From NCBI GenBank assembly GCA_025059235.1, contig JANXCV010000002.1, positions 145,498-209,497 on the forward strand: 64,000 bases of DNA, read 5' to 3'. How positions within the stretch are numbered: the first letter of the stretch is position 1; each line of letters opens with the position of its first letter. Below are positions 1,257 to 41,992 of the stretch, piece by piece. The notes below the pieces were generated by a model, which saw nothing but the letters and a program-made list of their open reading frames with translations, searched no databases and was not told the origin of the DNA. The translations under genes and the position numbers were made by a program. The stretch is from Candidatus Calescibacterium sp. (lineage in GTDB: Bacteria; DRYD01).

Positions 1257-2393
1257 ATGAAAGGTGTGGAATTCTTTAGTTTAAAAAATGAGATTAATCT
1301 TTTAAAGGATGAAATTTTACAAGAAGTAAACAAAGTTTTGGAATCAGGCAAATTTATAATGAGCTCAAATGTTCAGGAATTTGAGAACCAGATTTGTAAA
1401 TATTTTGGTGTTAAGTATGCTGTTAGTGTAAATTCAGGTACTGATGCTCTGGTCATTTCTTTGAGAGCTGCAGGCATAAAGCCAGGAGATGAAGTAATTA
1501 CTACTCCCTTCACTTTTTTTGCTACTGCCGAAGCAATCAGTATTATCGGTGCCATTCCTGTTTTTGTGGATATAGATGAAGCGACTTTTAACATAGATGC
1601 TAACAGAATAGAAGAAAAGATAACTTCCAAGACTAAGGCAATATTACCAGTTCATCTGTTTGGTTTACCTTGTGACATGGAAAAAATAATGGATATAGCT
1701 AGAAGATATGATTTAGTTGTGATAGAGGATAATGCTCAGGGTTTTGGCTCTGAGGTAAAGATAAACGGTAGATTTGTGAAGACCGGTACGATTGGACATG
1801 CCGGTGCTTTTTCTTTTTTCCCCACTAAGAATCTCGGAGCTTATGGTGACGGAGGTATAATCATTACCAACGATGATAACATATTTGAAAAAGCTTCTAT
1901 GCTGAAAAATCATGGTTCAAGAATAAAGTATTACAACGAGATGTTGGGATATAATTCAAGACTAGACGAAATACAAGCAGCTATCTTGAAGGTTAAGCTA
2001 AAGTATGTGGAGAAATTTAACGAAAGCAGAATAACTATAGCTCACAGGTATACCCAAGCTCTTCAGGGATTAAATGAATATATAGCTGTCCCTTACTACG
2101 ATTCTACCAAATATAAGCATGTTTTTCATCAGTATTCTATAAAAGTAAAAAATGGTCTGAGAGATAATTTTAGAGAATTCTTGAATAAAAACGGTATTAA
2201 TACCTTTGTTTACTATCCTTATCCTATTCATAAGTTACCGGTATACAGGGATATGGGTTATAGTCTACCGGTAAGTGAAAGAATTGCTCAAGAAATAGTT
2301 AGCTTACCGATGTATCATTTAATGGAGATAGAAAAAGTTGACTATATTGTGAGTAAGATAAAAGAATGGGTTCATAGCTTATCTTTCAGATAA
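1257..2393 (+). CDS. DegT/DnrJ/EryC1/StrS family PLP-dependent sugar aminotransferase
   Basis: SGTDAL, FSFFPTKNLGAYGDGG and the overall pattern match the DegT family. Confidence 0.8.
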   Translation: MKGVEFFSLKNEINLLKDEILQEVNKVLESGKFIMSSNVQEFENQICKYFGVKYAVSVNSGTDALVISLRAAGIKPGDEVITTPFTFFATAEAISIIGAIPVFVDIDEATFNIDANRIEEKITSKTKAILPVHLFGLPCDMEKIMDIARRYDLVVIEDNAQGFGSEVKINGRFVKTGTIGHAGAFSFFPTKNLGAYGDGGIIITNDDNIFEKASMLKNHGSRIKYYNEMLGYNSRLDEIQAAILKVKLKYVEKFNESRITIAHRYTQALQGLNEYIAVPYYDSTKYKHVFHQYSIKVKNGLRDNFREFLNKNGINTFVYYPYPIHKLPVYRDMGYSLPVSERIAQEIVSLPMYHLMEIEKVDYIVSKIKEWVHSLSFR

Positions 2394-2394
2394 A

Positions 2395-3312
2395 ATGGAA
2401 GTGATAGTTGCAAAAAATTCAGCTAGGATAGATAAATTTTTATCTGAAAATCTTGGGATATCAAGGTCCTTAGCTCAGGAATACATAATAAAAGGATTAG
2501 TAAGTGTAAATAATTCTCTTGTCAATAAAGTGAGCAAGATTATCAAAGAGGGTGACGTTGTTCATATTAAATCAAAGTACCTAAAAGAGGACAAATTTGA
2601 AAATATTCAGGTTGAGTTAAAAAACATAGAAATATACAAAAATCTAGAGGTTCCGATCTTGTTTGAAAATGATGATATCATTTGTATAAATAAACCTGTT
2701 ATAAATGTTAACAAAGTTGGTTCAAATCCAAGTATATATGAATATTTGATTTACAAAGGTCTGAAACCGTTTATAGTTCATAGATTAGATAAGCAGACTA
2801 CAGGTTGTCTCGTTGTTGCAAAGAATTATGAAACTGCAGAGTGTTTATCTTTACTCTTTAAGAATAGGAAAGTGGAGAAAATATATTTTGCAATTGTTGA
2901 GGGGGTAGTTAAGCAAAATCTAGAGATTCATTCTGCCATACATCATACTTCGACCCCTTTCAGAAAACAGGTGATTTCATATGGAAAAGAATCCACCACG
3001 ATTATAAAAGTAAAGAAATATCTAAAAAAGGAGAGCTTAGCTAGGTATTTTGCAGATGATATCTTTTTTAACAAAAATATAGAGGATTTTAGCTTTTTGG
3101 AAGTACAGATAATAACGGGTAGAACACATCAGATAAGGGTTCATTGTTCGGAGATTGGACATCCAATTGTCGGAGATACAAGATATTCTAGCTCAGTCTC
3201 TATATCAAAAGGAAGAGTTTTTCTATTGCATTCTCATAAGATTTCCTTCGAACTCTGGGGTAAAAAGTATGAATTCTCATGTTTACCAAGTTGGTATATT
3301 TTGATCTCTTAA
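2395..3312 (+). CDS. RluA-family 23S rRNA pseudouridine synthase (RluD-like, with S4 domain)
   Basis: N-terminal S4-like region; HRLDKQTTGCLVVAKN catalytic motif; RTHQIRVH. Confidence 0.8.
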   Translation: MEVIVAKNSARIDKFLSENLGISRSLAQEYIIKGLVSVNNSLVNKVSKIIKEGDVVHIKSKYLKEDKFENIQVELKNIEIYKNLEVPILFENDDIICINKPVINVNKVGSNPSIYEYLIYKGLKPFIVHRLDKQTTGCLVVAKNYETAECLSLLFKNRKVEKIYFAIVEGVVKQNLEIHSAIHHTSTPFRKQVISYGKESTTIIKVKKYLKKESLARYFADDIFFNKNIEDFSFLEVQIITGRTHQIRVHCSEIGHPIVGDTRYSSSVSISKGRVFLLHSHKISFELWGKKYEFSCLPSWYILIS

Positions 3313-8648: not shown

Positions 8649-9775
8649 GCTGGAATAGACATGCGGCTTCAAAACTTTCCAGCAGGTCTAGAAATAATAG
8701 TGATAGGTAATAAAAGCAGTAGGAAAATCTATACAAGAATATGTATAATAGCAGATATGTCTAGGAAAAAGGTAAAGTATAATTCATCAACAGTTACGGT
8801 TTACGTTTCAGAGAAATTTTAGCAAAAATTTTACAAAGAAATGAATATTTGCTTGTAGAGGAAAAGAGTTATTATTCCCTGCCATATCGGGTTTTTTCAT
8901 TCCACTAATTATCCCTCCCTGTTAAATTTAGTAAATTTTGTTATTACTGAAATAAATCTATCGTTAGGCTGAAAGGCATAGTAGAAATATTCTAAAGAAT
9001 AATCGTGAGTATATATACGATGTAGAGAGTATTCCTTATAGTTAAAATCAGCTTTTTTCTATTTCTCCTTGTAATCTAATTCTCTTATGTTGCGTTGCTT
9101 ATTGCAAATCGTAAGGATATAGCATACAAAAAGTCGTCGATATGATTTAATTTTAGAAAAGATGAAGTATTGGAATGAACTAGAAGAAATATTAAGATGT
9201 TTTTTGTGTATGGTTTATACTAAATTTACGTTAAAATTGTTTTTTGCTCTAAATAAGTTATTCGAAGATTGTTGAAGTACATTGTGAATGATTATTTTCC
9301 TTCTGCTATTACTATATAAAACCTGCTTTATCAAGCCTTATAGTCAGGGAAGGCATTATTTTTTATCTTACAGAGGAAGTATCACTTTTTCTATATTATC
9401 AGTGAGATTTTGGCAAATCTCTATAATTGCTTTTTCAAGCCAAGTATTTGAATTTAACAATTTTGTTCTCTATGTGGTAATGTATTTAAGCAAAAATTAG
9501 GCAAAGAGGAACACGTATCGTAAATTCTTTATAAAGTACACTATAAGAAATAATCACAACCTAAGCTAATAGGAAGACAATAATGAAATTTATGTTATTA
9601 CATATCCAGGAGAAATAGAAGTACCACATCGAGCTATTTTCTAGAAAAAGTAGGCTTTTGTAAATAATCCCTAAATTGGCAAAAAAATTCGAACAATAAG
9701 TAATCAGGCAGAAACGGTAGTAATAAGCTTGCATCTATTTGATCTGAAGCTTGCAGATAGGTAGGAGGGAAGGTA

Positions 9776-36563: not shown

Positions 36564-38462
36564 TTATTTTATTTGTGGGGGTTTAGGTTGACCAGCTTGC
36601 TGCGAGCTTGGTTGTTGTAACTGTGTTGAAGTTGTTGTCTGTGGTGTTTGCTGACTAGATAATCCTTTCAATATTTCTATGAGATCTACTCCGGTTATGT
36701 TTTTGAGGACTTCGGGAACGGTTGCAACTGTTCCGGCTATATCTCTAGTTAGGTTTGAAAAACCTGCTCCATTTCCTCCACCTATCATTATCACCTTATC
36801 CACTCTATTTAGAGGATTTGCTACTTTTTCTGCTATTTCTGGTAATTTTTCAATTATTATCTCTGCTATTGCTGCATTGTTGTACATTCGCCAGGCTTCT
36901 GCTTTTTTCATCATTGCTTTAGCTATTGCTACTCCTTGGGCTTCGGTGACTTCTGCTTCTGCTAGACCTTTAGCTTTTGCTGCTTCTGCTTCTGCTTGAC
37001 CACTGAGTTTTATTTTTTCGGCCTCTGCTTGAGCTAAAGCTATTTGTCTCATCCTTTCTGCTTCTGCCAACTGCTCTATTTTATATCTTTCTGCTTCTGC
37101 TGGTTTTTTAACTGTTGCTTCTAATTCTTTTTCTTTTCTTTGTGCTTCTAGGTTTTGTAGTTCTATTTGTTTTTCTTTTTCAGTTATGAAGTAAGCCATA
37201 TCTGCTTCTGCTCTTTTTGCTTCTGCTTTTCTTCTTTCTTCTGAAACTTTCATGTCTGCTTCTATTTGGGCTATTCTTTTTCTTTGATCTGCTTCTGCTT
37301 CTTTTTCTGCTGCTTGTGCTTCTGCTTCAGCTGCTGCTTTTCTTGCTGCTGCCATTTGTTCAGCTTCTTTTGCCTTGGCTTCGGCATCTTGTTGAGCAGT
37401 ATATATTCTCTTTTCTTTTTCTGTTTCCGCTTGTCTTTTTGCTATTTCCAGAGATTGTTCTAATTCATAGTTTTTTGCTATTTTTTCTAGTTCTGCTTGT
37501 TTCATTCTTGCTTGGGTTTCCTGTTCTTTTATTTGAGGAGCAACCCTAAATTCTATAGCTTTCTCAGGATCACCTATATCTTTTATTGCAAACGTATCTA
37601 ATATTAATCCCATTTTTGTAAAGTCATCTTTTATTGCTTCTTCAACTTTTTTAACTATCTCTTCTCTTTTGTGTAGTAATTCTTCTAGATTAACTGCGGC
37701 TATGACTTCTCTGGTTTTACCCTCCAATATTTCCCTTATGCTGGCTATTACTGTATCTGATTTTTGGCTTAGGAATCTTTCTCCAGCTTTTTCTAATTCG
37801 TTTAAGTTGAATTTAACTGCTGCTGTTGCGCTGACACTTACGGGGATTTTATCTGCAGTTAATATCTTTGCAGTAGTCACGTCTATAATCAAGCTGGTCA
37901 GAGCTAATTTTATTGAGCCTATTGGATCTAGAACATCTTTTATCGTAAAGGCATCTATTCTTAATCCTAGAATTCCAAGGTCTTTAGCTGCTGATTTATT
38001 TACCTCCTGGATGAAGGTATCTCTGTCATGAAGTAGTTGTTGTAATCTTGTTTTTGCTATGACTTCTCTTGTGTGACCTTCTAAGATTTCTTTTATATTC
38101 TTATCTATTTCTTGATCTGTTTTTCCGAGGAATCTTTCTGCTGCACTGAGTATATTAGCTTGATTAGATGAGTCTATCTTAACGGTTGCTACTGCTTCTA
38201 CTGATAGGGGTACTTTATCTAAAGTTAGTATTTGTGGGCTTCTTATATCGATTATTCTTGCTTCTAGTGAAAGTTCTTGAGCGCTTTGTACTAGGGGGAA
38301 TACTATTGTTCCTCCTCCTACTACTACTCTTCTCCCTCCAAGACCAGTGATTATTAAAGCTTTATTTGGTGGAACTTTTCTGTATAGAGTAACGGTAAAG
38401 TATGTAAGTACGAATATAACGAATATCCCTGCTATTATTGCTATTAGTACTAAAATATCCAT
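36564..38462 (-). CDS. Flotillin-like SPFH/band-7 protein with two SPFH domains and an EA-rich coiled coil
   Basis: N-terminal TM; two SPFH domain cores; long AEAEA/KEAE repeat region. 632 aa. Confidence 0.8.
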   Translation of the reverse strand: MDILVLIAIIAGIFVIFVLTYFTVTLYRKVPPNKALIITGLGGRRVVVGGGTIVFPLVQSAQELSLEARIIDIRSPQILTLDKVPLSVEAVATVKIDSSNQANILSAAERFLGKTDQEIDKNIKEILEGHTREVIAKTRLQQLLHDRDTFIQEVNKSAAKDLGILGLRIDAFTIKDVLDPIGSIKLALTSLIIDVTTAKILTADKIPVSVSATAAVKFNLNELEKAGERFLSQKSDTVIASIREILEGKTREVIAAVNLEELLHKREEIVKKVEEAIKDDFTKMGLILDTFAIKDIGDPEKAIEFRVAPQIKEQETQARMKQAELEKIAKNYELEQSLEIAKRQAETEKEKRIYTAQQDAEAKAKEAEQMAAARKAAAEAEAQAAEKEAEADQRKRIAQIEADMKVSEERRKAEAKRAEADMAYFITEKEKQIELQNLEAQRKEKELEATVKKPAEAERYKIEQLAEAERMRQIALAQAEAEKIKLSGQAEAEAAKAKGLAEAEVTEAQGVAIAKAMMKKAEAWRMYNNAAIAEIIIEKLPEIAEKVANPLNRVDKVIMIGGGNGAGFSNLTRDIAGTVATVPEVLKNITGVDLIEILKGLSSQQTPQTTTSTQLQQPSSQQAGQPKPPQIK

Positions 38463-38513
38463 TTTTCTTCACCTCTTTCTACTTTTGTAAAAAAATTCTG
38501 ACTTTTTATCTAT

Positions 38514-39047
38514 CTAACTTTTTACCAGTTCTGTTTCCCAGTTTGGAGGGCAGGCTTTACCGGGATTATCATAAACAAATTTGCAAGCTTTAAGAGTTCT
38601 TAGGATTTCCATCGTGTTCCTTCCGATCAAAAAATCATTTACACATATATGCATTACTATACCTTCTGGGTTAACAATAACGGTTCCTCTTCTTGTAAGT
38701 CCAGTGTTTTCATCATATGTTCCCATAGTGCTTGTTAGATTATGTGTGGCATCTGAGATCATAGGAAATTCGACGTTTTTTAGGGAATCTGTAGATTCTT
38801 TCCAAGCTTTCAGTGTATATACGGTGTCTGTACTTAATGACATCAATTCTGCTCCTAACTTTTTAAATTCATCATAGATTTTTGAAAGTTCTGACAATTC
38901 TTCTTGACAGACAGTGGTAAATGCAGCCGGATGTGATACTAGAACTAACCATTTTCCCTTGTATTCTTCTAGGTTAATCTCCTTTATTTCTCCGTTATGG
39001 TATACTTTTACTTTACAGTAAGGGAATTTTTGTCCTACTCTGAGCAT
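38514..39047 (-). CDS. Peroxiredoxin (AhpC/TSA family)
   Basis: Thioredoxin-fold motif HPAAFTTVCQEE with a peroxidatic Cys; 177 aa. Confidence 0.75.
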   Translation of the reverse strand: MLRVGQKFPYCKVKVYHNGEIKEINLEEYKGKWLVLVSHPAAFTTVCQEELSELSKIYDEFKKLGAELMSLSTDTVYTLKAWKESTDSLKNVEFPMISDATHNLTSTMGTYDENTGLTRRGTVIVNPEGIVMHICVNDFLIGRNTMEILRTLKACKFVYDNPGKACPPNWETELVKS

Positions 39048-39140
39048 ATTTTATTTACCTCCTTCGTGATACTAACTCAAGATCGACAATATAATTCTTA
39101 TACTATTTTATCTTATGACCTGCATTCAGTTCATTAATTT

Positions 39141-39160
39141 TTATTGATAAAAATCAATAA
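39141..39160. promoter_or_regulatory. Perfect 8-4-8 palindrome TTATTGAT-AAAA-ATCAATAA about 95 nt upstream of the peroxiredoxin start; candidate operator
   Basis: Read directly from the sequence. A near-identical palindrome lies at 40442-40459. Confidence 0.4.
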
Positions 39161-39297
39161 ATTTTAGCTAAAGATTTGCTTTTCTGAATTTACTTTTCTA
39201 AGTTGGAAAAAGTCGGGCTATATTTTGAATCCGGAAGTCAATCTCCACCAGTTCCAATGGTAATAGTCATGTGACTGAATACTGGTGGAATGATTAA

Positions 39298-39765
39298 AAG
39301 GGGAAATGAAAGTATTTCTGTCTTCAAGGAGTTGTTGTAATCTTGTTTTTGCTATGAGTTATCTTATATGATTTTCTTTTTATATCCTTATCCATTTCTC
39401 TGTCTGTTTTTTCGAGAAATTTCTCTGCTGCACGAAGTATGTTGGCTTGATTAGATGAATCTATCTTAATGGTTGCCACTGCTTCTACTGACAAAGGTAT
39501 TTTATCCAGCGTTAGTTCTTGGGAGATTGTTATATGAATTATTCTTTCTTCTAATGAGAATTCTTGAGCGCTTTGTACTAGAGGGAATACTATCGTTCCT
39601 TTATGTGCTACTGTTTTTCTTCTTCCAGGTCTAGTAATGATCAGTACTTTGTTTGGGGGGACTTTTCTGTAAGAGTATATGAGCACGAGTATAATAATTA
39701 GCCCCACGATTACTAATATAATATCCATTTCTTTCACCTCCTTGCTCCGATTTGGTGTTATAAGA
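39298..39765 (-). pseudogene. Duplicated 5' fragment of the flotillin gene, including its RBS region; truncated and frameshifted
   Basis: ORF 39324-39737 encodes ...YRKVPPNKVLIIT..TIVFPLVQSAQEFSLEERII..LSVEAVATIKIDSSNQANIL, nearly identical to the flotillin N-terminus. Nucleotide similarity extends to about 39300 and into the upstream leader. Confidence 0.75.
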
Positions 39766-39803
39766 ACTTTGTCTTATTATTTTTATTATTTTTTATTAAT
39801 TCT

Positions 39804-40286
39804 ATACGTCGGGTGAGAAATTCAGAGAGTGAAGAAGCCTGCTGTAAAAAGCCTTCCATAGGGTTAGTATGAAACTTCTAACATTGTATGACGAAGTGCT
39901 TAGAAGCCTTCTACAATCTTACACAGCCAAAACCCAAAGCAGGAAGAAAGCTAAAAATCTCAGACCACCTTCAGAAAAGCAAGACAGAAAAGAATTTACT
40001 CAAGCCTCGAGAAACTTATACAGCGCTCACTATGTCAAGAGAGTGCAGTTTGAAGAGCTCTACTACGGTATGCTTTTGATGGTGTTGTGTGATAAGGCGA
40101 AGAGTGGTTGGTTTAGGAATTTGGTAGGGCTTGCTGAGGTGTACGGAGATAGAGGATACAAGGAAGACAAGTCCATAAGGCAGGTGGTAGAGGGTGTGAT
40201 AAGCTGTGTGAAGAGTTTCAATGCTGTAAGTAGGTGGAGAAAGGGTATAGCTAAGATGCTATGGTTAATTTCTCACCCGACGTATT
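39804..40286. mobile_element. Small IS-like or MITE-like element remnant bounded by 19-bp perfect inverted repeats (ATACGTCGGGTGAGAAATT / AATTTCTCACCCGACGTAT); noticeably more G/C-rich than the flanks
   Basis: The inverted repeats and the flanking AT-rich direct repeat TTTTATT(T)AATTCTATAC were read directly. The internal ORF has a transposase-like ..YGDRGYK.. motif. Confidence 0.5.
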
Positions 40287-40330
40287 ATTTTTATTTAATT
40301 TTTTTATTTAATTCTATACCGATTAATTGA
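39869..40330 (+). CDS. Truncated transposase-like ORF inside the IS-like element (possible DDE-family fragment)
   Basis: 153 aa. LVGLAEVYGDRGYKED resembles the DDE transposase 'DRGY' region. The ORF runs through the right inverted repeat, so it is probably not a functional full-length gene. Confidence 0.3.
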   Translation: MKLLTLYDEVLRSLLQSYTAKTQSRKKAKNLRPPSEKQDRKEFTQASRNLYSAHYVKRVQFEELYYGMLLMVLCDKAKSGWFRNLVGLAEVYGDRGYKEDKSIRQVVEGVISCVKSFNAVSRWRKGIAKMLWLISHPTYYFYLIFLFNSIPIN

Positions 40331-40441
40331 CAAACTTTATAGGGTGAATTGTCATAGTCTGGTTATTTTTTGTCTGTCTTGACATAATTGTTATACTTAT
40401 CATTATTCCGATTTGAAAGACTTTTGTTTATATTATAATTA

Positions 40442-40459
40442 TATTGATGAAAATCAATA
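40442..40459. promoter_or_regulatory. 7-4-7 palindrome TATTGAT-GAAA-ATCAATA about 55 nt upstream of the 5S rRNA; a near-copy of the 39141 palindrome
   Basis: Read directly. It lies in the AT-rich region that also holds TTGACA-like hexamers (about 40331 and 40375). Confidence 0.35.
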
Positions 40460-40514
40460 TTTTTTATAATTTTTTATAAAGGTTTTAATGGTTTGGGGGT
40501 AGAAGTGTTATAGA

Positions 40515-40633
40515 GGCTGGTGCCCATAGCGGTGGGGAAACACCCGGTCCCATTCCGAACCCGGAAGTTAAGCCCACCAGCGCCGATGGTACTAATGGGG
40601 AGACCCAGTGGGAGAGTAGGTCGGTGCCAGCCT
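40515..40633 (+). rRNA. rrf: 5S ribosomal RNA
   Basis: GGCUGGUGCCCAUAGCGGUGGGGAAACACCCGGUCCCAUUCCGAACCCGGAAGUUAAGCCCACCAGCGCCGAUGGUACUAAUGGGGAGACC...GGUGCCAGCC has the 5S helix I pairing and the conserved CCGAAC/GAAGUUAAGC loop C/helix III elements. Confidence 0.9.
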
Positions 40634-40735
40634 TTCCCCTCCTGTTGTCCTATCCCCAAAATCCTTCCCACACTCTTTATTTTTCCCTTAGTTTTCTGAA
40701 GGAATAACTTACTTAAGGTTTAATTCTAAATCCAA

Positions 40736-41992
40736 ATGGATAGAAGATTTACGAAGATATTTGCAATAGTTATAGTTGTATTAAAACTATACTTTATTTT
40801 CCACTTGTTTTATCCTTTAGTCAAGAATGAGAGAATCCCTATAAAGCTGGGATTGGATCTTAGATATGGTATCCATATAATGCTAGAAATGTATGATCCT
40901 TCAAAGAAGATACTAACGGATACTGAAATGAGGCAGATAATAGGTATATTGGAGAAAAGGCTAAATCCAACAGGTACATATGAAATAGTTATTCAGCAAG
41001 CTGGAAACAATAGAGTAATCATAGAAATACCTGAAATAACAGATACTGCAGAGGCACTAGAAAGAGTAACAAAGGTAGGAAAACTAGAGTTCAAAGTAGA
41101 TGAATATGACCCCAATACCGGTATATTGAAGAAGAAAACGGTTCTTACAGGAGATAGAATAATAAGGGCAACCGTTGAGTATGACCCCAATACCCATTAT
41201 CCGCATGTGGCTTTCACCTTGGACGCAGAAGGAGCAAAAATATTTGAACAGGTCACCAGAGATTACCTTCAAAAACCAATATACATATATTTTGACAACA
41301 AAGAAATTTCTGCACCTATTGTACAATCTGTTATTGCGGGAGGAAGTGGAATAATAACACTGGGAGCAAAAGATAAAGAAGAAGCTCTAAAAGAAGCAAG
41401 GGAATTAGCAATATATCTTAACGCTGGTAAATTGGATTATCCTCCTAAAGTTCTGGAAGCATATACCATAGGTCCAACTTTGGGAGAGAAACATTTGAAA
41501 AAAAGTTTAGAAGCTGGTTTTATTGCCTTAGTAACTGTAGGAATATTTATGATATTTTTCTATCGGATTCCCGGGCTAGTTGCTGTTTTCGCACTGATAT
41601 TCTATGGGCTCCTTTTTGTCTGGATAATCTCTATAAGTAATACAGTTCTTACTTTGGGTTCTATTGCTGGGATTATTCTTTCTATAGGTATGGCTGTTGA
41701 CGCTAATATATTGATTTTCGAAAGATTTAAAGAAGAGTTAAGATCAGGAAAACCCACAAATACCTCTCTGGATCTAGCTTTTGCTAGATCTTTTGATACC
41801 ATTCTTGATAGTCATCTTACGACTATTCTTGCTGCTTTGGTATTGATAATTTTTGGAACTCCCACTATTCAGGGTTTTGCTTTTGCCTTACTTTGGGGAA
41901 ACGTAGTTAGTTTCTTTACTGCTATTTATGTAACAAAAACCATTATCTATCTCTTGTTTTATATTAACCCAAAGATTGTTGAATTGAAGTAG
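40736..41992 (+). CDS. secD: Protein translocase subunit SecD
   Basis: N-terminal TM, about 225-aa periplasmic domain, then six TM helices with GMAVDANILIFERFKEE. 418 aa. Confidence 0.65.
   Translation: MDRRFTKIFAIVIVVLKLYFIFHLFYPLVKNERIPIKLGLDLRYGIHIMLEMYDPSKKILTDTEMRQIIGILEKRLNPTGTYEIVIQQAGNNRVIIEIPEITDTAEALERVTKVGKLEFKVDEYDPNTGILKKKTVLTGDRIIRATVEYDPNTHYPHVAFTLDAEGAKIFEQVTRDYLQKPIYIYFDNKEISAPIVQSVIAGGSGIITLGAKDKEEALKEARELAIYLNAGKLDYPPKVLEAYTIGPTLGEKHLKKSLEAGFIALVTVGIFMIFFYRIPGLVAVFALIFYGLLFVWIISISNTVLTLGSIAGIILSIGMAVDANILIFERFKEELRSGKPTNTSLDLAFARSFDTILDSHLTTILAALVLIIFGTPTIQGFAFALLWGNVVSFFTAIYVTKTIIYLLFYINPKIVELK

Follow-up and report, generated by a model that had tools for sequence, protein, structure and literature searches.

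In a hot-spring Candidatus Calescibacterium genome, a 64-kb stretch of contig JANXCV010000002.1 (positions 145,498 to 209,497; G+C 32.6%), which we call the window and whose first letter is position 1 in all coordinates below, carries a truncated copy of the 5' end of a flotillin gene, parted from its parent by the peroxiredoxin gene prx. This copy is probably the eroding remnant of a tandem duplication of a unit made up of the 5S rRNA gene, prx and the 5' part of the flotillin gene, and the short flotillin-derived gene that arose from it, here called flotN', would have been kept for a long time and broken recently in this strain. The reading is carried by an intact 177-amino-acid (aa) allele of the copy in a related strain, by the remains of a second 5S gene and of a second palindromic spacer element in collinear order, and by a signal of purifying selection on the branch of the copy. 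The processes involved, namely partial tandem duplication, differential loss and pseudogenisation, are known ones, and the case is ordinary genome evolution with a modest twist. What makes it worth reporting is that in an uncultured hyperthermophile the locus records a multi-gene tandem duplication, and the fate of each of its parts, with unusual legibility, and that a pair of intact and broken alleles segregates in nature.

All genes of the block formed by flotillin, prx and the copy lie on the minus strand. Read in the direction of these genes, the order is 5S, first palindrome element, a gap with an insertion sequence (IS) derivative, the tail of a lost prx (prx'), a spacer copy and flotN' (unit 1), followed by the 5S remnant (psi-5S), second palindrome element, prx, spacer and flotillin (unit 2). 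The features are as follows.

36564-38462, minus strand: parent flotillin gene, open reading frame (ORF) of 632 aa with Pfam matches to Band_7 (two stretches, E = 4e-37) and Flot
38514-39047, minus strand: prx, peroxiredoxin (AhpC/TSA) gene, the surviving copy, in unit 2 (Pfam AhpC-TSA, E = 5.5e-33)
39139-39166, no strand: prx-proximal intergenic element with the 20-bp perfect palindrome TTATTGATAAAAATCAATAA (39141-39160), forming direct repeat D9 with 40439-40466 (86%)
39205-39265, plus strand as the real 5S gene: degenerate 5S rRNA pseudogene fragment, psi-5S (local alignment to 5S positions 40536-40594)
39298-39323, minus strand: untranslated tail of the copy (parent codons ~142-150), which holds the site of a 91-bp deletion (three-way alignment)
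39324-39728, minus strand: truncated flotillin copy, 134-aa ORF with Band_7/SPFH match (ATG at 39728, stop at 39324-39326)
39729-39803, minus strand: duplicated leader, comprising the Shine-Dalgarno sequence GGAGGTGA, the copied prx-flotillin spacer and ~6 codons from the 3' end of prx (collinear alignment to the parent side)
39804-40285, plus strand: non-autonomous IS derivative of 482 bp, resembling a miniature inverted-repeat transposable element (MITE), with perfect 19-bp terminal inverted repeats
40286-40319, no strand: right target-site duplication of the IS derivative, pairing with 39775-39803/7 (direct repeat D8, 81-86%)
40439-40466, no strand: 5S-proximal intergenic element of unit 1 with a palindrome at 40441-40460 (D9; aligns with the 5S-prx spacer of contigs L001/L002)
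40516-40632, plus strand: functional 5S rRNA gene of unit 1 (Rfam RF00001, 117 bits)

The Truncated Flotillin Copy

The central claim of the original prediction, a partial duplicate of the flotillin 5' end beyond prx, was borne out by a global alignment of 39298-39728 against 38011-38462, in which 340/423 positions are identical (80.4%), and by blastn (E = 2e-91). The repeat consists of an ungapped block of 294 nt (39378-39671 versus 38091-38384, 80%) and a block of 72 nt (39306-39377 versus 38011-38082, 85%). With about 80% identity at the nucleotide level and about 68% at the amino-acid level, parent and copy are clearly diverged rather than of high identity as had been stated. The extent had also been put too low, at about 105 codons: the copy covers the first ~150 codons of the parent, with 117 copy codons in frame (parent codons 1-124) and further homology out of frame to codon ~150. 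Relative to the parent, the hydrophobic N-terminus of the copy is shortened by two in-frame deletions of 9 and 12 nt. The 134-aa ORF comprises residues 1-117 in frame, i.e., a shortened anchor helix and the first two thirds of the SPFH domain, and ends in 17 out-of-frame residues. Its match to Band_7 (PF01145) reaches 34.4 bits (cut-off 23.6; E = 2.8e-8) over profile positions 2-85 of 176, which by sequence profile places it in the SPFH/Band 7 superfamily. FloT is the best NCBIfam model for parent and copy, and the equivalog scores of both (324 and 95 bits, respectively) lie below the cut-off of 700.

The copy keeps a strong Shine-Dalgarno sequence, an ATG and the hydrophobic N-terminus. The claim that the leader had been copied as well holds for the ribosome-binding site (RBS), the spacer and the last prx codons, about 75 nt in all, with weaker homology than in the coding part: 39729-39803 aligns to 38463-38532 with 51/69 positions identical, and a collinear alignment with 38463-38550 has 74% identity and z = 5.0, a score that was reached by 1/1000 dinucleotide shuffles, control segments scoring lower. 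The distal 29 nt of this leader double as the left target-site duplication of the IS derivative.

An Intact Allele and the Lesions of the Window Copy

A protein search with the 134-aa ORF led to a cluster of three, comprising a Logan protein that differs at 1 residue, an identical NCBI protein and a 177-aa variant. The sequence of the NCBI entries MCS7165291.1 and MDW8195255.1 equals that of the window ORF, and Logan contig L015 is 99.9% identical to the window with the same arrangement; the window allele is thus found, identical or near-identical, in at least three other assemblies. The 177-aa variant (P0004) is encoded on Logan contig L016 (SRR7039829), which matches the window at 97.3% identity across 4.9 kb and shows copy, prx and flotillin in an unchanged order. 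Here the copy is an intact ORF, and a three-way alignment reveals that window and L015 differ from L016 by an 8-bp deletion, a 91-bp deletion and a few substitutions. The 8-bp deletion, between 39378 and 39377, shifts the frame, which agrees with the earlier statement that the copy is cut short by a frameshift, and the 91-bp deletion, between 39309 and 39308 with CATT microhomology at its bounds, lies downstream of the new stop codon. A window-specific substitution, G33R, affects a glycine that is invariant in an alignment of 60 homologues. Since the bases present only in L016 match the parent, L016 represents the ancestral state. Both alleles lack the EA-rich coiled coil/helical barrel and the C-terminal Flot domain (PF15975), which the parent has, because homology to the parent stops at codon ~175.

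The window allele is therefore most likely a young pseudogene and its 134-aa ORF a degraded form of the intact 177-aa gene, as judged from the aligned sequences, and we infer that the window copy is at present non-functional; an expressed truncated fragment, as proposed before, fits these data less well than a fresh pseudogene. The two public records annotate the 134-aa ORF as an "SPFH domain-containing protein", although its last 17 residues are out-of-frame sequence, and this entry in public Calescibacterium metagenome-assembled genomes (MAGs) is best flagged as a frameshifted remnant. A scan of one metagenome (JGI) with the 177-aa protein returned solely a 33%-identical unrelated sequence, and exact-sequence look-ups of the parent, of a 137-aa GTG-start ORF and of P0003 retrieved no contigs.

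Remains of a Second 5S Gene and a Second Palindrome

Between the flotillin copy and the prx-side palindrome lies psi-5S, whose alignment to 5S positions 40536-40594 has z = 9.7 against shuffles and a core of 31/38 identical positions. The equivalent stretch of L016 is identical at 45/59 positions and is collinear with the 5S gene and palindrome of L001. An Rfam search at E <= 1 over 39100-40750 detected the true 5S gene alone, with psi-5S and any other RNA undetected; the fold energy of psi-5S is -25 kcal/mol versus -46 kcal/mol for the real 5S, and helix I is lost. By its remaining sequence similarity 39205-39265 is a 5S pseudogene that no longer fits the RF00001 covariance model, and the 136-nt stretch beside the 134-aa ORF can be annotated accordingly.

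The palindrome TTATTGATAAAAATCAATAA is conserved upstream of prx on the contigs L001-L003 of sister species (L001 about 9117-9161), where it lies in the spacer between the divergent 5S and prx genes. The element is likely to be an operator or promoter region of the divergent spacer, and the palindrome itself is a candidate operator, e.g., for a peroxide- or metal-responsive repressor of prx. In the sister species the 5S gene is found immediately upstream of prx in divergent orientation (Rfam: L001 8945-9061, L002 8897-9013, L003 7674-7790), so that the 5S gene of the window, which is unlinked to 16S and 23S and looked like an orphan, is ancestral at this locus. The original prediction had correctly placed the copy beside an IS-like element and a 5S gene and had taken the 5S gene as a sign of rearrangement. 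It is instead the decayed second 5S beside the copy that points to a tandem segmental duplication. The single 5S gene without 16S or 23S within 10 kb recurs at the same locus in 4/4 genomes (window and L001-L003), and the rRNA operon is therefore split in the genus Calescibacterium.

In a comparison with orthologues, the nucleotide identity of the copy is 74% to its own parent and 64-66% to L001-L003 and L007, and copy and parent have lineage-specific synonymous states in common that the orthologues lack. These shared states, together with the absence of the copy from L001-L003, place the duplication within the lineage of this species.

A Proposed Tandem Duplication of 5S, prx and the Flotillin 5' End

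We propose that the ancestral Calescibacterium locus consisted of a leftward 5S gene, a spacer with the palindrome, and rightward prx and flotillin genes, and that a unit of ~1.4 kb was doubled head to tail, one end of it lying slightly past the 3' end of 5S and the other at flotillin codon ~175. The product would have read 5S-IG'-prx'-flotN' / 5S-IG-prx-flotillin, where IG denotes the intergenic spacer. A unit with these ends predicts the observed order, in which prx separates the copy from its parent. Afterward, one copy of each redundant part would have been lost: the downstream 5S decayed, only the last codons of the upstream prx' escaped deletion, and the IS derivative inserted later at the prx' scar. 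FlotN' would have been kept as a separate gene with RBS, ATG and a 177-aa product under purifying selection for most of its history, and this product may formerly have been an SPFH-only protein anchored in the membrane that possibly assembled together with the full-length flotillin or modulated it. After ~3% divergence from the strain with the intact allele, the copy would then have acquired the 8-bp frameshift deletion, the 91-bp deletion and G33R. Both the single duplication event and this former function are what we infer from the arrangement.

In bacterial genomes it is general duplication-degeneration behaviour that redundant copies are lost reciprocally after a tandem segmental duplication. 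The locus resembles this behaviour in its two collinear units, of which each redundant element survives in one (5S in unit 1; prx and full-length flotillin in unit 2), and in its small deletions with microhomology. It differs in that the truncated flotN' escaped decay for long (branch dS, i.e., synonymous divergence, about 0.5) under purifying selection.

Selection on the Copy

Changes on the branch of the copy were counted against four orthologues as outgroups. This branch has 40 synonymous and 46 non-synonymous changes, which corresponds to a ratio of non-synonymous to synonymous rates (omega) of 0.27 (binomial p = 1e-6 versus the neutral proportion). Simulations with the same number of substitutions and the observed spectrum gave 57.6 +/- 3.5 amino-acid changes (minimum 43 in 3000 runs), compared to 36 observed, and left the ORF free of stop codons in 8% of the runs (P = 0.08). 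Both N-terminal indels (9 and 12 nt) are in frame and count as further support for selection. With an omega of 0.03-0.05 in the parent flotillin, the sequence comparison indicates that the copy was relaxed yet clearly constrained for most of its history. The dS between copy and parent is 0.6-0.85, versus 1.1-2.0 between species, and the duplication is therefore old.

What is expected of a pseudogene is thus found in part: the copy is a paralogue of its neighbour (80% identity) with a lineage-specific origin, and it carries disabling lesions relative to L016 and to the parent, namely the 8-bp and 91-bp deletions and G33R. Its evolution since duplication, however, was not neutral, and the inactivation is therefore recent and did not coincide with the duplication.

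The IS Derivative

The IS derivative lies in unit 1 at the prx' scar, 5' of the copy, whereas the duplication junction is located elsewhere, beside psi-5S (about 39266-39297). The derivative shows the terminal inverted repeats, flanking target duplications and multiple copies that are expected of an IS or MITE. The element is flanked by an imperfect direct repeat of ~29-33 nt, and a second copy on contig L018 (2258-2739) of another Calescibacterium MAG is 91% identical, lies in another context and has its own, different 29-nt direct repeat. Since the flanking repeats differ between the window and L018, they are long target-site duplications; that the AT-rich repeats are part of the IS or remains of prx' is ruled out by the L018 copy, in which the repeats are site-specific. 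There is no second IS copy that bounds the copied segment and none elsewhere in the window. The derivative may have contributed to the loss of prx', but there is no sign that it caused the duplication.

An ORF at 39869-40330 ("ORF153") probably represents the frameshifted, internally deleted remains of a DDE-type transposase. It has no Pfam or NCBIfam match, and its likely transposase nature becomes apparent only upon aligning database homologues: full-length relatives of 230-264 aa show D...D...E-like blocks in the alignment and sub-threshold matches to DDE_Tnp_1 (20.7 bits, cut-off 23) and DDE_Tnp_4. One Calescibacterium MAG has homologues of ORF153 at three further loci, and Aquificaceae MAGs carry them at many, which suggests that this IS family, common to Calescibacterium and co-resident Aquificaceae, has spread horizontally in hot-spring communities. 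IS1634/IS1549-type insertion sequences are known to create long direct repeats (PMC2266710), and the window element resembles them in its unusually long direct repeats (about 29-33 nt) and in having relatives with DDE-like transposases. It differs from them in that the transposases of its family are 230-264 aa long with sub-threshold Pfam DDE scores, while IS1634 elements measure 1.5-2 kb (PMC2266710).

Expression Signals

The gap between prx and the parent flotillin gene is 51 nt long and contains no detectable terminator-like site, and transcription of the parent therefore most likely starts at the prx promoter. Given this probable co-transcription with prx, the duplicated leader would have brought no promoter of its own, in disagreement with the proposal that the copy carries one; RBS, spacer and prx tail alone were copied. 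Right after the duplication, transcription of flotN' would have started at the promoter of prx', and any present transcription of the copy would have to come through or out of the IS derivative. A sigma-70 and terminator scan of 38300-40800 found no site upstream of the copy, with counts not above those in shuffled sequences, so that a scan of this kind is not informative here.

Predicted Fold of the 177-aa Form

AlphaFold2 modelled the 177-aa protein with 60 homologues at a predicted local distance difference test score of 96.1 and a predicted TM-score of 0.85. The model starts with a helix (residues 2-19), continues with a beta-rich half (20-89) and four helices (94-157), and is closed by a strand at residues 160-172. 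Foldseek superposed it on SPFH1+SPFH2 of flotillin-1/2 (9l3g, 9bq2) with TM 0.83 and a root-mean-square deviation of 1.4 A, and phmmer against PDB sequences matched the 177-aa allele to flotillin-1 residues 6-155 (E = 6e-17). The 177-aa form is thus predicted to be a shortened hydrophobic anchor with a complete SPFH1+SPFH2 module and no coiled coil. The complete fold needs residues 20-172, all of which P0004 provides, whereas the window allele is in frame to residue 117 only and loses most of the helical half and the closing strand.

Short SPFH-Only Proteins Beside Flotillin Genes

Short proteins of this kind are found beside other flotillin genes as well. On contig L007, from a Tibetan MAG, an intact 299-aa paralogue (472-1371) lies between prx and flotillin (1390-3285); it has the anchor and both SPFH repeats, lacks a coiled coil, is closest to its own neighbour, has an omega of 0.31 and is an independent duplication. 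A protein from another assembly, P0038, looks chimeric, with a parent-like N-terminal half and a C-terminal half like that of the 299-aa protein, which suggests gene conversion between neighbouring paralogues. The unrelated contig L022 (49% GC) carries a complete 181-aa ORF with anchor and SPFH domain (324-869), 185 nt upstream of a flotillin-like gene (1054-2214); it is 56% identical to the N-terminus of its neighbour, and its end falls on the domain boundary at which the 177-aa Calescibacterium protein also stops. P0045 and P0173 are complete 180-aa ORFs on short contigs with no flotillin gene detected beside them, and P0141 is a complete 187-aa ORF located 26 nt upstream of another ORF of at least 328 aa. 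The ~180-aa relatives are not contig-end fragments in 4/4 cases checked, all being complete ORFs inside contigs; other short relatives may be fragments.

In B. subtilis YuaG, the PHB/SPFH domain forms oligomers even in isolation, and an N-terminal hairpin serves as membrane anchor (PMC4312047). It is chiefly the helical barrel and the C-terminus that hold flotillin cages together, the SPFH domains forming their membrane-bound rim (PMC11260169). By analogy with YuaG, a protein consisting of anchor and SPFH domain is therefore plausible as a membrane-bound oligomer or rim partner. A more general proposal, to which we give only tentative credence, is that SPFH-only proteins of ~180 aa are recurrent, selectively kept flotillin partners that arise by repeated 5' partial tandem duplication and insert into or cap the membrane-proximal SPFH ring of the flotillin assembly. 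It draws on three independent duplicates beside their parents (the 177-aa protein, the 299-aa protein of L007 and the 181-aa protein of L022), on P0045, P0173 and P0141, on the omega values of about 0.27 for the copy and about 0.31 for the L007 pair, and on the oligomerisation of the lone YuaG domain. If it is true, the window would show one such gene in the act of being lost. The value of the window for membrane biology is limited, and together with the two independent analogues it hints that selection can keep SPFH modules without a coiled coil beside full-length flotillins.

Tandem SPFH duplicates side by side have been described as HflK/HflC, NfeD1a-SPFH1a.1-SPFH1a.2, cyanobacterial SPFH2 pairs and SPFH11a/SPFH11b, with SPFH11b lacking a coiled coil (PMC2636767). 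Like these, the copy is a lineage-specific duplicate kept near its parent and a shorter partner without coiled coil, cf. SPFH11b (PMC2636767). Unlike them, it was partial from birth (codons 1-~175), is inactivated in this strain and is parted from its parent by prx because the duplicated unit spanned three genes. With the bacterial flotillins (FloT/YuaG, YqiK; SPFH2; Hinderhofer et al. 2009, PMC2636767) parent and copy share the Band_7/SPFH domain and an N-terminal hydrophobic anchor, and the predicted 177-aa fold superposes on flotillin-1/2 as described above. The differences are that the copy lacks the EA-rich helical barrel and Flot domain that stabilise the cages (PMC11260169), that there is no NfeD partner gene at the locus, and that the window allele lacks a complete SPFH domain.

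Alternative Explanations

That an IS-mediated rearrangement copied the flotillin 5' end together with a promoter and thereby gave an expressed, membrane-anchored truncated SPFH fragment, as originally predicted, is very improbable. The IS derivative abuts the leader of the copy and belongs to a multi-copy family, and the ORF keeps its RBS, ATG and hydrophobic N-terminus; however, the element has its own target duplication within the older unit, lies 5' of the copy and not at the junction of flotN' and psi-5S, and is single in the 64 kb. Moreover, psi-5S and the duplicated palindrome would be left unexplained, no promoter-like site is seen upstream of the copied RBS, spacer and prx tail, and the frameshift arose secondarily in a longer ORF that had been intact. 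Another possibility, that the 134-aa product with its anchor and SPFH1 sheet is still functional and represents a further step of neofunctionalisation, we hold to be unlikely: with the in-frame part ending at residue 117, the product lacks the predicted helices 109-157 and closing strand 160-172, the invariant glycine is replaced, and three lesions within about 3% divergence look like release from constraint. In its favour, the ORF keeps its start signals and is untouched by the 91-bp deletion, which lies past the new stop, and the allele occurs in at least three other assemblies, yet these are 99.9-100% identical and may be one population.

The extra unit could also stem from a related Calescibacterium, from which a homologous fragment 5S-prx-flotN would have been integrated, e.g., by a single crossover of a circularised fragment. 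The strongly asymmetric synonymous branch lengths (copy 0.54, parent 0.13) and a copy-parent dS (0.6-0.85) that is large compared to the 3% divergence between the strains with the copy speak for such a transfer, but we consider it improbable, as no sampled orthologue comes as close to the copy as its own parent, copy and parent have lineage-specific synonymous states in common, a donor lineage is not known, and saturated outgroups (dS 1.2-2.0) bias the parsimony assignment towards the copy branch. An assembly or binning artefact, i.e., a chimeric contig or a collapsed or duplicated repeat, on which the original prediction would have fallen, has a practically negligible probability. The source is a metagenome-assembled genome, but parent and copy have diverged at about 20% of their positions and are set apart by several indels, and the order copy-prx-flotillin recurs in Logan assemblies of two different runs (L015, L016) and, with identical proteins, in two NCBI MAGs.

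The preferred reading, a tandem duplication with a long-kept and recently broken flotN', has several observations to contend with. A DNA alignment of 40320-40438 with the spacer and the prx 5' end is not significant (z = 0.8), tblastn of prx versus 39729-40520 gave E > 1 with no remnant of the 5' half of prx', and there is no trace of the spacer beyond the palindrome; in consequence, a full prx' is deduced from its 3' tail only. The omega of the copy (0.27) is about 6-fold relaxed versus the parent, and part of its history may already be neutral. Synonymous change is very unequal between the copy branch (0.54) and the parent (0.13), an asymmetry that may in part be a parsimony artefact or could reflect a copy derived from a related lineage by recombination. 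Finally, the 134-aa ORF still has RBS, ATG and anchor, and residual function is possible.

Genomic Surroundings

In the parent flotillin, an N-terminal anchor is followed by an SPFH domain and a partial second repeat of it, then by an EA-rich coiled coil and the Flot C-terminus. Orthologues at 84-89% identity were found in 7 Calescibacterium-like hot-spring MAGs and nowhere else, and the adjacency of prx and flotillin is kept in L001-L003, L007 and L016. No match to an NfeD/YuaF-type partner was recorded at the locus, where the neighbours are prx, a 107-aa ORF without Pfam match and a TP_methylase gene. Within the parent, residues 64-148 and about 186-270 form an internal partial SPFH repeat (47% identity; tblastn E = 2e-16), which is present in all Calescibacterium flotillin orthologues, more distant homologues being about 200 aa shorter. 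This repeat represents a third, older duplication that hit the same SPFH module.

The neighbourhood of the 5S gene looks like a rearrangement hot spot. In the window, where a promoter-like TTGACA-16-CATTAT lies at 40379-40406, SecD is 104 nt from the 5S gene, whereas the interval between SecD and 5S in sister species holds 2-4 small paralogous membrane-protein genes (motif ERKLLLFYY) and a ~200-aa gene, all absent across the 64-kb window (compared intervals: window 40633-40735 versus L001 6422-8944 and L003 6421-7673 and 7838-9269). One of the small membrane-protein genes is frameshifted in L001, and L003 carries a different insert of 1.4 kb between 5S and prx.

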